Shown here: positions 36,168-41,248 of the stretch, one piece after another
Layout of the letters: the number at the start of each line of letters is the position of its first letter
Position numbering within the stretch: the first letter of the stretch is position 1
DNA from: Betaproteobacteria bacterium
GTDB taxonomy: Bacteria; Pseudomonadota; Gammaproteobacteria; Burkholderiales; SG8-41
Assembly (NCBI GenBank): GCA_028291945.1
Contig: JAQGNH010000247.1
Location: 392-64,391, forward strand
DNA length: 64,000 nt
Direction: 5' to 3'
Made by a program: the position numbers and the translations under genes
The notes under the pieces: model-generated
The model's database searches: none
Seen by the model: the letters and a program-made list of their open reading frames with translations, nothing else
Told to the model about the DNA's origin: nothing

Positions 36168-37280
36168 TCATGCGGCGAGTCTCATGCAGACTTCCGCGAC
36201 CGTACGCGTTGCGTCCGGCTTGCCCGCAGCTCTCGCCTGTTTCGCCATCGCGAGCAACTTGTCACGCGTGAATTCAGCGAGCAGATCTGCAAGACGCTGC
36301 GGCGTAAGCTCGCTTTGCGGTATGAGCAGCGCGGCGCCGCGCTCTGCGAGGAAGCGCGCGTTTTGCGTCTGATGATCGTCGACTGCTTGCGGAAACGGTA
36401 TCAGGACAGCAGGCACACCCGCGGCTGCCAGCTCGGCAATGGTTGAAGCGCCAGCGCGGCAGATCATCAGGTCGGCCGCAGCGTAGCTTGCCGCCATATC
36501 TTCGATGAACCCAATAATGCTCGCCTCAACGGCTGCCGAAGCGTAGTTCGCGCGCACCGCATCGAGATGAGCGGCGCCCGCCTGGTGTATCACTTCAGGA
36601 CGGACACTCTGTGACAATCGTGCGATCGCTTGCGGAACGACATCGTTCAGCGCTTTCGCACCCTGACTTCCGCCGAGTACGAGCACGCGCAATCGCCCGT
36701 GACGTCCCGCAAAGCGCTGTTCCGGCGGCGCGATCGCTGCGATGTCTGCCCGAACCGGGTTGCCGCTCCACTCGGCCTTGGCCCGCTTGCCGAAAGCCCC
36801 TGGAAAACCGAGGAGCACCTTGTCTGCAACATGACCGAGCACCCGGTTCGTGAGCCCTGCGACTGAATTCTGCTCGTGAATGACCAGCGGCCGATTGAAG
36901 AGACTCGCCATCATGCCGCCGGGGAAAGCAACGTAACCGCCCATACCGAGCACGACGTCCGGACGATGCGCGAAGAGCGCACGCGCGCTCTGCACGAACG
37001 CAATGAGCAGATTGAGCGGCAGCAGCGCAGCACGGACCAGACCTTTGCCGCGCAGGCCGGACATTCGGATCCACGCCATCGTGTAACCCTTAGCCGGCAC
37101 GATGCGGGCCTCCATGCCCGCACGCGAGCCGAGCCATACGACGTTCCAGCCCGCGGCGCGCACGTGCTCTGCTACGGAAAGTGCCGGAAAAATATGGCCA
37201 CCGGTGCCGCCGGCCATGACCATCAGAGTTCGCCGCCCCTGGGCGCTCGGCGTTGGGTCGCGTTGAACAGTATTGATCAT
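36168..37280 (-). CDS. murG: UDP-N-acetylglucosamine--N-acetylmuramyl-(pentapeptide) pyrophosphoryl-undecaprenol GlcNAc transferase
   Basis: …[16 protein letters not shown]…, glycosyltransferase 28 family. Confidence 0.95.
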
Positions 37281-37315
37281 ACTGTCAGGCCCTTCGCGAG
37301 CCTGCCGTTTTGGCT
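37277..37315 (-). other. Orphan duplicate of the ftsW 3' tail, whose TGA overlaps the murG ATG
   Basis: Reads [15 protein letters not shown] against the in-use [14 protein letters not shown] at 37372. 30/35 ungapped nt identity, offset 95 bp. Confidence 0.8.
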
Positions 37316-37371
37316 ACGCCGAAACAGGCAGCCATCAGTTCCAAATTCGCCATGTGCCAACGCTCGCCTAG

Positions 37372-38532
37372 TCATACTGTCAGGCCTTTCGCGAGCTGCC
37401 TGTTTTCCCAATCGACACGCAGAAGTATTGCGAGGGCGGCACACGTTGCCGCGAGGGCGCTGCCGCCGAACGACAGCAGCGGCAGCGTCAGGCCCTTTGT
37501 GGGCAATACGCCCATGTTCACGCCCATATTGATGATCGCCTGCACGCCGATCCACAGGCCGACGCCTTGCGCGACAAGCGATGCGAAATAGCGCTCGAGC
37601 ATGGCCGCGCGGCGCCCTATTGCAAATGCCCGCGCCACGACCCACCCAAACATGAGCACGATCAAAGCGACGCCCACGAAGCCAAGCTCTTCGGCGATGA
37701 CAGCGAGGAGGAAATCCGTGTGCGCCTCCGGAAGGTAAAACAGTTTCTCGACGCTTCCGCCCAGGCCGACACCGAACCATTCTCCACGGCCGAATGCGAT
37801 CAATGCATGCGAGAGCTGATAGCCTTTCCCATACGGATCGGCCCAGGGGTCCATGAAACCGACCACCCGCTGCATGCGATAAGGCGAGATCCAGATCAGC
37901 AGCAGGAAGCCGATGATCAGCATGACGATCAAGCCAGCGAACAGACGCCAGTTCATGCCGCCGAGGAAGAGGATGCCCATCGCAATGACCGTGATGACGG
38001 CGAACGCGCCGAAATCCGGCTCACGCAACAACAGGCCGCCGGTGAGCAGCATCACGAAAAACATCGGCATGAAGCCGCGACGCAGGCTGTGCATGAACGC
38101 GGCCTTGCGTACGGTGTAGTCGGCGGCGTAAAGAACGCAGCACACCTTCATGAGCTCGGAAGGCTGGAAGTTCGCGACATACAGCGAGATCCAGCGCCGA
38201 CTGCCGTTCACTTCGCGTCCGATGCCGGGCACGAGCACGAGCATGAGGAACGCGAGCGCAACGACGAAAAGGTAAGGCGCAGCTTGTTGCCACAGCCGGG
38301 TCGGCACCTGGAACGCGACGACCGCGAACACGAGGGCGATAGCAACAAAAAACGTGTGACGCACGAGATAGTACGTCGGCTGATAGCCCGTGCTGCGCCC
38401 GGCTTCGGCAATAGCGATCGACGAGGAATAGACCATCACCACACCCAGCGCGAGCAGCAGGATCGTGCACCACACGAGAGGGACGTCGTACTCGGCGACC
38501 GACGCGCGCTTCTTGCTCTCGCGGTAATACAT
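37372..38532 (-). CDS. ftsW: Cell division protein FtsW (SEDS family)
   Basis: Start [21 protein letters not shown] at 38532. Polytopic, …[21 protein letters not shown]… The track ORF adds 37 spurious aa overlapping murD. Confidence 0.93.
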
Positions 38533-38540
38533 GGCCTGGC

Positions 38541-39941
38541 TCACGGCAGGCGTCCTTCCTCTGTCGCTGCGAGAGCCTTCACGGCGGCAACAAAGACCTG
38601 AGCGCGGTGCACGTAACTCGTGAACATGTCGTAGCTCGCACACGCGGGAGACAACAGCACGGCATCTCCCGTACGGCTCTCGCTGTAGGCGGCTTGCACC
38701 GCCTCTTCCAACGTCGAAGCGTGCAGCACGCGAACGCCTGAACCGGTCAGCACGTGCTCGATCTGCGGTGCATCGCGCCCGATCAACACCACTGCGCGCG
38801 CATGAGTAGATATTGCTCGGGTGAGAGGCGAAAAGTTCTGCCCTTTGCCGTCTCCCCCGGCGATGAGCACGACGGGTACGGTCATGCCGTTCAGCGCGGC
38901 AACCGTCGCACCGACATTGGTGCCCTTGGAATCATCGTAGAACGTGATGCCGCGCACCTCTGCAACTTTTTCGAGCCGGTGCGGTAAGCCCCGAAAGCGC
39001 CGCAGGCCTTCGAGCATAGTGCTCTCAGGCATTCCGATCGCATCGCAGAGCGCCAGTGCCGCGAGCGCGTTTGCAGCGTTGTGCAAGCCGGCGACCGGCA
39101 GCTCGTCGATGGGCATCAACGTGTCGCCACCGCGGAGGAGCATCGAATGGCCCGAGACGCCCCAGTCGTGATCGTTTGCCGGCGCGTCAAGACCAAAGGT
39201 GGTGGCGTGCTTCCCGGGACGGGCCATGCGCATGCTCCACGCATCCTGTCGGTTCAACACCTGCACACCGGCGCCTGCGAACACGCGTGCTTTCGCATCG
39301 GCGTATTCGTCCATGCCGTCGTATCGATCGAGGTGATCTTCAGTCACGTTGAGCACGGTGGCTGCGTCTGCGCGCAGGCTGGACGTGCTTTCAAGCTGAA
39401 AGCTAGAGAGCTCCAGCACGAATACATCCGGCATCGCTTTGCCGTTTTCGATTTCGGTCAGGGCATCCAGTACCGGCAATCCGATGTTTCCGGCCACAAT
39501 CGTCGCTCGTCCGCTAACGCGCGAAACTTCACCTGCCATTGCGGTCACGGTGCTCTTACCGTTCGAGCCCGTGATCGCAACGACCTGCGGCCTTGCCCTC
39601 GATTGTCGGGCGGCAACATCGTCGAGGGTGCCCGCGAACATCTCGACATCGCCCACGACAGGGACACCGCGTCGAGTCGCTCCCGCTATTGATGCTTCGC
39701 GACGATCGACTCCAGGACTGATTGCGATGACATCAGCGCGCGCGAAATCACGCTCGCTGAAGGGGCCGGTCGAAATCGGCACGTCCGGCGACTCCGTTTC
39801 GAGCGTGCGTTTGTGTGGTGGATGCGCGCGGCTGTCAGCGACCCTAACTCGCGCACCGTGACGCACGAGCCACCGGGTCATCGACAGACCTGTGTCACCG
39901 AGTCCGAGCACCAGCACGTTCCTGTCTTTCCAATCCAGCAT
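38541..39941 (-). CDS. murD: UDP-N-acetylmuramoylalanine--D-glutamate ligase
   Basis: …[12 protein letters not shown]…, …[10 protein letters not shown]… (Mur ligase P-loop). Confidence 0.95.
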
Positions 39942-40002
39942 CCTTAAACCACGTCATAAGCGGTAAGCCGTTTCATGCGTCCGACGGCTCATGGTTCACG
40001 AC

Positions 40003-40083
40003 TCACCGCAGCTTCAGCGTCGACAAGCCGATTAGCACCAACATCATCGAAATGATCCAGAAGCGCACGGGCTGGTTTTGGCT
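40003..40083 (-). other. Orphan duplicate of the mraY 3' tail in the mraY-murD spacer
   Basis: Translates to [25 protein letters not shown]. The last 21 aa are identical to those of MraY, which ends at 40163. 11 codons differ and all are synonymous. Offset 160 bp. Confidence 0.85.
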
Positions 40084-40162
40084 CCGGCCGGCCGACACAC
40101 CACGCTCGACCTTAACTTGCTTCGCAAGTTAGCCTTCACCGAAACCAAGTTGTCGTGCACTA

Positions 40163-41248
40163 TCATCTGAGCTTCAGTGTAGAAAGACCTATCAGCACTA
40201 ACATCATTGAGATGATCCAGAAGCGCACGACAACTTGGTTTTCCTTCCATCCTTTGAGCTCATAGTGGTGATGCAGCGGCGCCATTCGGAAAATGCGTTT
40301 GCCCGTGAGCTTGAAGGACGCGACCTGCAGCATCACCGACAAAGTCTCCACGACAAACACGCCACCCATCACCAGCAGCACGATTTCCTGCCTCACGATC
40401 ACGGCCATGGTCCCAAGCGCTGCGCCAAGCGCGAGCGCACCGACGTCACCCATGAAGACTTCCGCTGGATAGGCGTTGAACCATAGGAACGCGAGACCCG
40501 CGCCTGCCAATGCACCGCAGATCACTGCAAGCTCGCTCGCGCCAGGGATATAGGGGAAATTGAGATATTTCGAGAAGACGGCGTGACCGGCGACGTACGC
40601 AAATACGCCGAGCGCGCTGCCGATCATGACGGTCGGCATGATCGCAAGGCCATCGAGCCCATCCGTGAGGTTGACGGCATTGCTCGTGCCGACTATGACG
40701 AAATAGGTCATCACGATGAAACCTATCCAGCCGAGCGGATACGCCACCTGTTTGAAGAAGGGGACGATGAATGCCGTCTGAGCGGGCAGGTTCGTGGAAA
40801 ACGCGATATACCACGCCGCAGTGACGCCGAATACCGACTGCCAGAAGAACTTGGTGCGCGCGGAAAGTCCTTTGGGATTGCGGTGTACGACTTTTCGGTA
40901 ATCGTCGATCCAGCCGATCGCGCCGAAAGCCACTGTCACCCACAGAACGACCCATACGAATCGGTTACTCAGGTCCGCCCACAGTAGCGTGGTCACCACC
41001 ACGGAAACGAGGATCAGTGCGCCACCCATCGTCGGCGTACCGGCTTTCGTGAGGTGGCTCTGGGGACCATCGCTGCGCACGGCCTGCCCTATTTTGTATG
41101 CCGTGAGCTTGCGGATCATCGCCGGGCCGACGACGAATGAAAGCACGAGCGCAGTCAGGCACGCGAGCACTGCGCGCAACGTGATGTAGTTGAACACGTT
41201 GAAAGCGCGGATATCCTTCCCCAACAGCTGCGCGAGCTCTAAGAGCAT
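40163..41248 (-). CDS. mraY: Phospho-N-acetylmuramoyl-pentapeptide transferase
   Basis: …NVFNYITLR…, …[10 protein letters not shown]…, …[12 protein letters not shown]…. Confidence 0.97.

Follow-up and report, generated by a model that had tools for sequence, protein, structure and literature searches.

How can one gene come to have two ends that differ only in synonymous codons? The question is raised by the mraY-murD region of a 64,000-nucleotide (nt) stretch of DNA from a Betaproteobacteria bacterium (GenBank assembly GCA_028291945.1, contig JAQGNH010000247.1, positions 392 to 64,391 of the forward strand), hereafter the window. On the minus strand of this region the last 21 codons of mraY plus the stop are present in two copies (40003-40069 and 40163-40229), which a repeat finder detected as a direct repeat of 67 nt with 81% identity at a spacing of 160 nt. 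One copy is the used tail, which is translated and carries the mraY stop at 40163; the other, the orphan, lies in the 221-nt spacer between that stop and the murD start at 39941. A first-pass annotation, made from the sequence alone, had described the doubled tail, its codon style and the long spacer, and alignment with codon-by-codon comparison bore this description out: 13 nt substitutions fall in 11 codons, 100% of them synonymous, and the used tail has 8 A/T-ending sense codons versus 2 in the orphan (G+C at third codon positions, GC3, of 0.62 and 0.90, respectively). On the 5′ side of a GTG codon the two frames stop matching, with KENQVV in the used and RSQNQP in the orphan copy. Our analysis indicates that the two tails are probably direct repeats flanking one copy of a small structured repeat element, here called E, such duplications being a trait of the E family.

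A second repeat, missed in the first-pass annotation, gives the locus its geometry. Positions 40142-40161 are complementary to 40222-40241 at 19 of 20 positions (95%), and the former segment, which follows the used stop directly, repeats mraY codons just 5′ of the tail in reverse complement. We call the two arms X (in mraY) and X′ (after the stop); as they bracket the used tail, the translated tail would be the loop of a long hairpin. The X/X′ stem was dominant in both the RNA fold and the single-stranded DNA (ssDNA) fold, with a z-score of −4.5 for the latter. Scans of the region for promoters and terminators gave no result on the gene strand, and an Rfam scan of the same region returned only four weak, irrelevant matches with E-values of at least 0.1, no family fitting E. 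The unit is laid out as follows, in coordinates of the window:

40163..41248, minus strand: mraY coding sequence, 361 amino acids, ending in the used tail (open reading frame (ORF) list and translation)
40239..40243, minus strand: GAAAA target motif in mraY, codons GAA AAC (Glu-Asn), where the upstream repeat copy begins (sequence)
40222..40241, minus strand: X, 5′ arm of the long hairpin, mraY codons for NQVVVR (20-nt inverted repeat; RNA and ssDNA folds)
40163..40229, minus strand: used tail, 21 codons plus TGA, loop of the X/X′ hairpin, the apparently derived copy (repeat, codon and distance comparisons)
40145..40161, minus strand: X′, inverted copy of the mraY codons after GAAAA, beginning 1 nt past the stop and abutting the 5′ end of E
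40076..40144, minus strand: E, 69-nt structured repeat element, a three-way junction (covariance model, 65.4 bits, E-value 6e-23)
40070..40075, minus strand: altered X remnant in the orphan, CCAGCC, originally CCAAGTTGT (comparison with the used copy and with L005, a relative introduced below)
40003..40069, minus strand: orphan tail, the apparently original mraY end, continuous with the native spacer (4/66 nt from the E-free L005; homologous flank)
39942..40002, minus strand: native spacer 5′ of murD, with about 14 extra nt relative to L005
38541..39941, minus strand: murD, its upstream context preserved through the orphan copy

Downstream of X′ the window reads TTTCGGTGAAGGCTAAC, a hairpin, GTTAAGG, a second hairpin and GGCCGGAGCCAAAA, followed by the orphan copy. 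The native order was ...GAAAAC-X-tail-stop-spacer-murD, and the present order is ...GAAAAC-X-tail(used)-stop, then X′-E(...GCCAAAA), then C-X(remnant)-tail(orphan)-stop-spacer-murD. Both neighbours remain intact, since mraY retains a complete tail and murD its original upstream context. The extra nucleotides of the native spacer (GAACCATGAGCCGT) lie at about 39985-39998 on the minus strand.

The mraY-murD junction was compared in a set of 80 species-representative genomes holding relatives of the MraY protein of the window (the other genomes and contigs compared bear L-numbers, and WIN is the window). Identical MraY protein was found in at least 13 contigs, and the whole arrangement recurred in the metagenome-assembled genome (MAG) GCA_034668005.1 and in eight JGI metagenome contigs from different samples, 99.6-99.9% identical and with ordinary single-nucleotide polymorphisms (SNPs). 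L005 encodes an identical MraY protein, with mraY DNA about 6% diverged, and lacks the duplication; its single tail and downstream spacer correspond to the orphan copy and spacer of the window, which marks the orphan side as ancestral. The first-pass annotation had considered that the same arrangement in all close relatives would indicate an old conserved feature. Homologous inserts with duplicated tails do occupy the same place in L012 (93% identity) and L022 (86%), but the arrangement is absent from the close relatives L005 and L011. Across the 80 related genomes the site is either empty or occupied by a small unit, with no integrase and no larger element.

The distances between tails lead to the same answer. 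Relative to L005, the orphan differs at 4 of 66 nt, where the rate of the gene body predicts 3.9, and the used tail differs at 11, in line with the earlier suggestion that the translated tail is the newcomer. The asymmetry is repeated in L012 and L022, and in L085 by a count over 51 aligned nt. In a distance matrix the orphans group with E-free tails (4-12 differences), while the used tails form separate long branches that lie 14-19 differences from each other and 9-11 from the nearest sampled tail; no sampled tail is nearer than 10 nt to the used copy of the window. Because the orphan stands at background distance from E-free tails and is flanked by native spacer, it is, on these comparisons, the original tail, and the translated copy is the derived one.

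Three side observations concern this site. In the orphan copies of the window, L012, L022 and L134, 13 nt instead of the native 16 separate the AAAA of E from the TTCTGG/TTTTGG (F-W) codons, so that the VVV run is short of one Val codon; either a deletion inherited from a common ancestor or repeated slippage in the GTN repeat could account for this. In L085, a Casimicrobiaceae MAG, a different-looking structured insert follows mraY (2226-2366) with a shorter duplicated tail whose differences are synonymous only, and in its layout (CGGCGTCCGCTGAC, hairpin, GT..GGAG, hairpin) there is a hint of a divergent subfamily beyond the reach of the covariance model R1 described below. An apparent duplication in L041 (7100-7200) was discarded: two identical copies of the mraY end with the sequence behind it surround a run of N, most likely a scaffolding or masking artefact.

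The insert itself belongs to a family with a conserved fold. E is a three-way-junction hairpin of 46-73 nt with the conserved ends TTTCGG and GCCAAAA, and its pattern can be written TTTCGG-YG-N-AGGCTRAC-P2-GTYAAG-P3-GGCCGNAGCC-AAAA. The consensus structure, derived from an alignment of 79 copies, has an outer GGY/GCC stem, a symmetric GNA/GNA internal loop, a second stem GGC/GCC, a hairpin P2 on a CURAC...GUYAAG base and a hairpin P3. Of the cells in this alignment 97% are paired, and double-sided changes number 170, as against 53 ± 5 in shuffled alignments (0/500 reach 170) and at most 42 when partners are slid. The covariance model R1, built from the alignment, found in the 64-kb window the mraY-murD copy (65.4 bits), a remnant near ftsW (19.3 bits) and no other credible match; a hit at 2804-2856, inside an ORF, was taken as chance. 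The lengths of 126 distinct copies peak at 58, 61, 64 and 67 nt and fall into the three residue classes of the triplet as 73, 39 and 14 copies. Lengths divisible by 3, at which the conserved TRA of GGCTRAC reads as an in-frame stop, are depleted; the periodicity suggests selection for translatability of the element.

A scan of metagenome contigs for the pattern of both conserved ends matched at least 120 of them, in which at least 135 copies were counted, and the counts over metagenome loci given here refer to the matches listed (at least 120 loci). With the covariance model, E was found in 10 of the 80 related genomes, always on the sense strand and at mraY-murD (L012, L022) or ftsW-murG. The host genes, judged by eye from translations of the upstream ORF, include those for ornithine carbamoyltransferase, NrdB, TrpE, Acs, transketolase, AccB, FolE2, DapD, HisE, PhhB, SerRS, Dps, MraY and FtsW, the last at about 25 of the 120 loci. 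The conserved ends of E, 17 and 14 nt long, recur at about 18 unrelated gene families. Many loci carry tandem arrays of 2-4 units, unit number differs between close relatives (one in L056, two in L119), and in many cases an apparent single copy is followed by a second, degenerate E; a few 5′-truncated copies exist. Among the loci listed none has E on both strands, and at the 120 loci no transposase, reverse transcriptase or other protein recurs beside E, only host housekeeping genes. Searches of phage, plasmid and viral contigs with the insert or with E patterns returned only mraY matches or nothing. The searched literature gave no text match to E sequences. E is a widespread structured repeat of Betaproteobacteria that we did not find described in Rfam or in the literature searched.

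Two placements depart from the common one. In L163 (336-396) one copy directly follows the 3′ end of the 16S rRNA (...GGATCACCTCCTTTCTAGAAAAC), so that E is not restricted to protein-gene junctions. In L106, L140, L157, L176, L190, L195 and L205, E lies antisense to the nuo operon within codons 9-10 of nuoD (N-F, AATTTTGG), and the duplicated piece is the head of the gene; in L195 an ORF that opens at the orphan ATG reads across E in reverse complement and closes at a TGA next to the true ATG of nuoD.

The duplication seen at mraY is a rule of the family rather than a peculiarity of this locus. About 75% of E copies have upstream and downstream direct repeats above the shuffled-pair control, and in some the two repeats match at 100% over 72-79 nt. 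Upstream of E, at a distance of 3-50 nt, lies the end of a long ORF on the same strand. The downstream repeat copy normally starts at the terminal AAAA of E, and the upstream copy starts at [G/C]AAAA in 57 of 57 non-redundant sites. At 35 of 35 sense-gene sites, in about 18 gene families, this target stands in the codon phase GAA|AAN, against a phase background of 53-66%. The 4-20 nt that follow the target AAAA recur, reverse-complemented, immediately 5′ of E, and X:X′ pairing is family-wide, with a median of 7 nt versus 0.95 in the control; the orphan X is often altered. Where E lies inside a long ORF (L124 and L185), the unit length is divisible by 3 (102 and 96 nt, respectively), and a perfect 16-bp X:X′ stem is kept despite the divergence of X from the downstream copy. 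We also considered, as a sign of selection on the stem, that X′ pairs better with the used than with the orphan X (28:0); this was rejected, as the used X is constrained by coding and the result is expected anyway.

The window holds a second such unit, at the ftsW-murG junction:

37277..37407, minus strand: second E-family unit (loose motif; covariance model 19.3 bits for the E remnant)
37403-37407, minus strand: GAAAA
37372-37374, minus strand: stop of the used ftsW tail
37325-37332, minus strand: X′, 8 nt
37308-37324, minus strand: internally deleted E, TTTCGGCGTAGCCAAAA, 17 nt
37277-37279, minus strand: TGA of the orphan tail, overlapping the murG ATG at 37278-37280
37375 to 37277, minus strand: relay ORF of 32 amino acids, its ATG overlapping the ftsW stop and its TGA the murG ATG

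L005 has the orthologous unit, with the same linker and the same deleted E. In each of the two genomes, window and L005, lineage-specific substitutions (two for the unit) appear in both tail copies, which suggests gene conversion between the copies. The conserved hairpin is also present at ftsW-murG of L088 and, with a looser motif, in L013, L056 and L064 at the same junction, the ftsW tail being duplicated every time.

The relay ORF points to a way in which hosts could tolerate insertion. In 20 of 22 units in which both stops could be placed, no stop interrupts the orphan frame as far back as the used stop, and 16 of the 22 have a unit period of 2 mod 3, the period required for an ORF to run from the ATG of one ATGA overlap to the next ATGA. 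We infer from these frames that small relay frames preserve translational coupling in many units. In the mraY unit, a CGG to AGA change creates an ATGA at the used stop, and the ORF starting there ends inside the orphan.

Why the translated copy should be the more diverged one is a separate matter. In this lineage the used tail is about three times more diverged than background. Family-wide, used and orphan copies show 86 synonymous and 19 non-synonymous codon differences, a ratio far more synonymous than expected had the orphans drifted without constraint over the time span of the used copies. Tail pairs from different genomes with 9-13 synonymous codon differences have on average about 2 amino-acid changes, and about 9% of such pairs have none. 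An amino-acid variant that is rare in general (2 of 96 tails) is common to the used and orphan mraY tails of this lineage, and the 32 nt 5′ of the diverged part are identical to L005. The reading we favour, which the tail comparisons appear to support, is that the tail was duplicated locally and that the translated copy then changed unusually fast at synonymous sites. Local hypermutation of the used tail was not significant (2 variant sites in 85 nt versus 0.87% overall), and relaxed constraint found no support, E-free tails not being unusually conserved at synonymous sites. A family-wide A/T shift or G depletion of used copies is absent (51 versus 40, with a symmetric substitution matrix), so the rare-codon look of the used tail in the window is idiosyncratic.

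The alternative that survives best, though we regard it as unlikely, is import. The recoded tail, X′ and E would together form an old insertion allele, maintained in a species complex whose members recombine, and homologous or site-specific recombination within the conserved core CGTGCGCTTCTGGATCAT would carry it into E-free genomes; the translated tail would be a long-separated paralogous allele and the orphan the recently displaced, pristine native tail, as in integrative elements that bring their own copy of a gene 3′ end. Such a history needs no rate acceleration for differences that are purely synonymous, with orphans at background distance and used tails on long branches. It also fits the sharp boundary between an identical block of 18-32 nt and the diverged part, and the family-wide substitution matrix, symmetric as in ordinary allelic divergence; the E-free L005 could be a revertant through a crossover in the core. 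Interaction between copies is documented by the ftsW unit, older than the split of the window from L005, where both copies carry the two lineage-specific changes. However, X′, although located past the diverged segment, agrees with the local X at 19 of 20 positions, and the used X and core are identical to L005 over the 32 nt, where a diverged donor should differ. Rare lineage amino-acid variants are common to used and orphan tails in the window, L012, L171 and L022, the used tails of different hosts do not group together, no donor-like tail occurs among the sampled tails, and the 80 genomes have neither an integrase nor a larger element at the site. It is the shared rare variant, the local X′ and the L005-identical 32 nt that make an imported diverged allele unlikely.

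Quite improbable, in our view, is that E was never mobile and that E with the X/X′ hairpin is a cis-acting RNA serving in regulation or in mRNA processing or stabilisation; it would have originated in a local tandem duplication and been passed on vertically under selection for the relative expression of operon neighbours. The strong covariation for a conserved fold, the co-orientation of most copies with the upstream gene, the preserved relay frames, the stability of the ssDNA fold and the perfect 16-bp stems of L124 and L185, kept although X has diverged from the orphan X, all agree with it. This reading is hard to reconcile with the same conserved ends at about 18 unrelated gene families and after the 16S rRNA, with antisense copies at the nuoD head, with the patchy distribution among close relatives, with tandem arrays and identical repeats, and with the few 5′-truncated copies. 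A function gained after insertion may coexist with mobility of E.

The interpretation given in the first-pass annotation fares worse. It took the doubled tail for the ends of two diverged mraY alleles, brought together by an insertion or by illegitimate recombination, which in the form considered here would be helped by homology and involve foreign DNA. An insertion does separate the copies, and the synonymous-only differences, the atypical codons of the used tail and the lack of the arrangement in the closest relative speak for the proposal. As a one-off scar of two alleles, however, the locus is very improbable: the DNA between the two tails belongs to a family of more than 130 copies carrying such duplications, X′ was copied from the local gene, both copies share the rare local amino-acid variant, no donor was found among the sampled tails and the same architecture stands at ftsW-murG in the same window. 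An engineered construct, to which synonymous recoding of a duplicated overlap (a designer's practice) and a GGCCGGCC site in the spacer could point, or an assembly artefact, which the nine independent same-species assemblies exclude, has a negligible probability given the environmental origin and natural SNPs of those assemblies and the homologous units of other uncultured lineages.

Under the preferred explanation, a family-specific duplication around E, the element would be a present or former non-autonomous mobile element inserted by a replicative, target-primed or copy-choice event. A target strand ending in TTTT would pair with the AAAA end of E, and E would be copied; the hairpin-shaped product would snap back on the primer strand and copy a few target bases, giving X′. 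Synthesis resuming behind the switch point would leave a long target duplication of variable length (30-100 nt) that begins at the A run, after which the translated copy would be free to change only synonymously. Alternatively, a single-strand (HUH-type) nuclease that cuts after AAAA and mobilises whole units could fit the geometry. Both insertion models are hypotheses drawn from that geometry. More specifically, and as a doubtful proposition, E might be a bacterial SINE-like element (SINE, short interspersed nuclear element), a non-autonomous hairpin RNA or ssDNA for which target-primed synthesis would supply new copies at [G/C]AAAA sites. Pairing would take place between the AAAA tail of E and the TTTT 3′ end of a nicked target, the hairpin product would snap back to give X′, and a staggered second cut or a template switch would produce the 30-100-nt duplications; survival in essential operons would follow from a duplication that rebuilds both gene ends and the relay frame.

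Several points weigh against a mobile E as the cause of the doubled tail. The tests described above, negative or underpowered, gave no cause for the extra synonymous changes in the used tail. The mobility of E is deduced from its distribution, its arrays and its identical repeats; the 120 loci listed show no recurrent enzyme gene next to it, and the sampled data hold no near-identical filled/empty pair showing a fresh insertion. The mraY unit has no relay frame reaching murD, its period of 160 nt being 1 mod 3. The 3-nt-shorter orphan X shared by the window, L012, L022 and L134 could mean one old insertion, not recurrent ones.

Comparison with known elements places E close to several of them and inside none, the first two described here being the nearest. 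Mycobacterial interspersed repetitive units (MIRUs) are short, apparently mobile repeats between operon genes, often in tandem (Supply et al. 1997, summarised in PMC12548453). Like them, E lies between co-oriented operon genes (mraY-murD, ftsW-murG) and varies in tandem copy number, and the small coupled ORFs of MIRUs, as far as that summary goes, have a counterpart in the relay ORF of the ftsW-murG unit and of most family units, whereas the ORF of the mraY unit does not reach murD. The host phylum differs, and within the scope of that summary we did not find described for MIRUs the covarying three-way junction of E, the [G/C]AAAA target, X′ or the coding-tail duplication of 30-100 nt. The Beta-proteobacterial repeat elements (BRE) of Bordetella and other Betaproteobacteria (Hot et al. 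2011, PMC3110155) measure about 75-91 bp, are intergenic, sometimes overlapping ORF ends or lying inside ORFs, and form tandem arrays whose number varies between strains, with suspected mobility. They share with E the Betaproteobacteria, the size range, the variable tandem number, the location in intergenic regions or at ORF ends and the G+C-rich hairpins bounded by T and A runs, with a similar 3′ end (...GGCC..GCCAAAA). Nevertheless, the signature motifs GGCTRAC, GTYAAG and TTTCGG/CCGAAA are absent from both strands of the BRE sequences listed in PMC3110155, which contains no description of gene-tail duplication or of a GAAAA target.

REP and REPIN sequences, mobilised by RAYT transposases, are also short, abundant, hairpin-forming and non-autonomous, lie near gene 3′ ends and keep their structure by compensatory change. 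E differs from them in being a three-way junction instead of a simple palindrome, in that the tag of REPs, GTAG or CGTC, is not conserved (GNAG, any N), and in lacking inverted pairs, as no listed locus has E on both strands. REPs are not known to carry long flanking duplications. Integrative elements of gene 3′ ends (tRNA, tmRNA and protein-gene islands and their integrase-less CIME derivatives) likewise leave two directly repeated copies of a gene 3′ end, of which the one joined to the gene body is translated while the original is displaced downstream, but the E unit has no integrase and measures only 160 nt; moreover, the replacement ends are specific to each of about 18 target genes and carry host amino-acid variants, so they were copied locally and not carried by E. 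Target-primed insertion of the eukaryotic LINEs (long interspersed nuclear elements) and SINEs involves an A-run end, A/T microhomology, a variable target-site duplication from the A run and, in LINE-1, occasional 5′ truncation. The likeness of E to these elements would be one of geometry only, and neither a reverse transcriptase nor an endonuclease partner recurs near E at the 120 loci listed.

Three further candidates were rejected. A diversity-generating retroelement would confine the changes to adenines of one copy; here the 13 differences fall on all four bases in each copy, and no reverse transcriptase gene was found nearby. A likeness to integron attC sites (GTTAAGC fits GTTRRRY) was discarded, as the boundaries lie at AAAA and not at G|TT and no array context is present, and a likeness to Tn3 inverted repeats (TAACGTGAG) was judged coincidental.

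If the behaviour proposed here is true, a tiny element colonises the tightest junctions of essential operons (mraY-murD, ftsW-murG, nuoC-nuoD and the 3′ ends of housekeeping genes) and its host survives, each insertion bringing a duplicate of the interrupted gene end and often a relay frame. The family adds to the known RNA and DNA folds a covarying three-way-junction motif that is absent from Rfam, and its AAAA-anchored variable duplications, accompanied by an inverted target copy, would point to an insertion chemistry that we did not find described for bacterial miniature elements. The paired tails also constitute a natural experiment on synonymous sites, one copy being translated within a putative hairpin loop and the other freshly non-coding. 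For annotation, the family offers a rule that explains orphan gene tails and unexpectedly long spacers in Betaproteobacteria.

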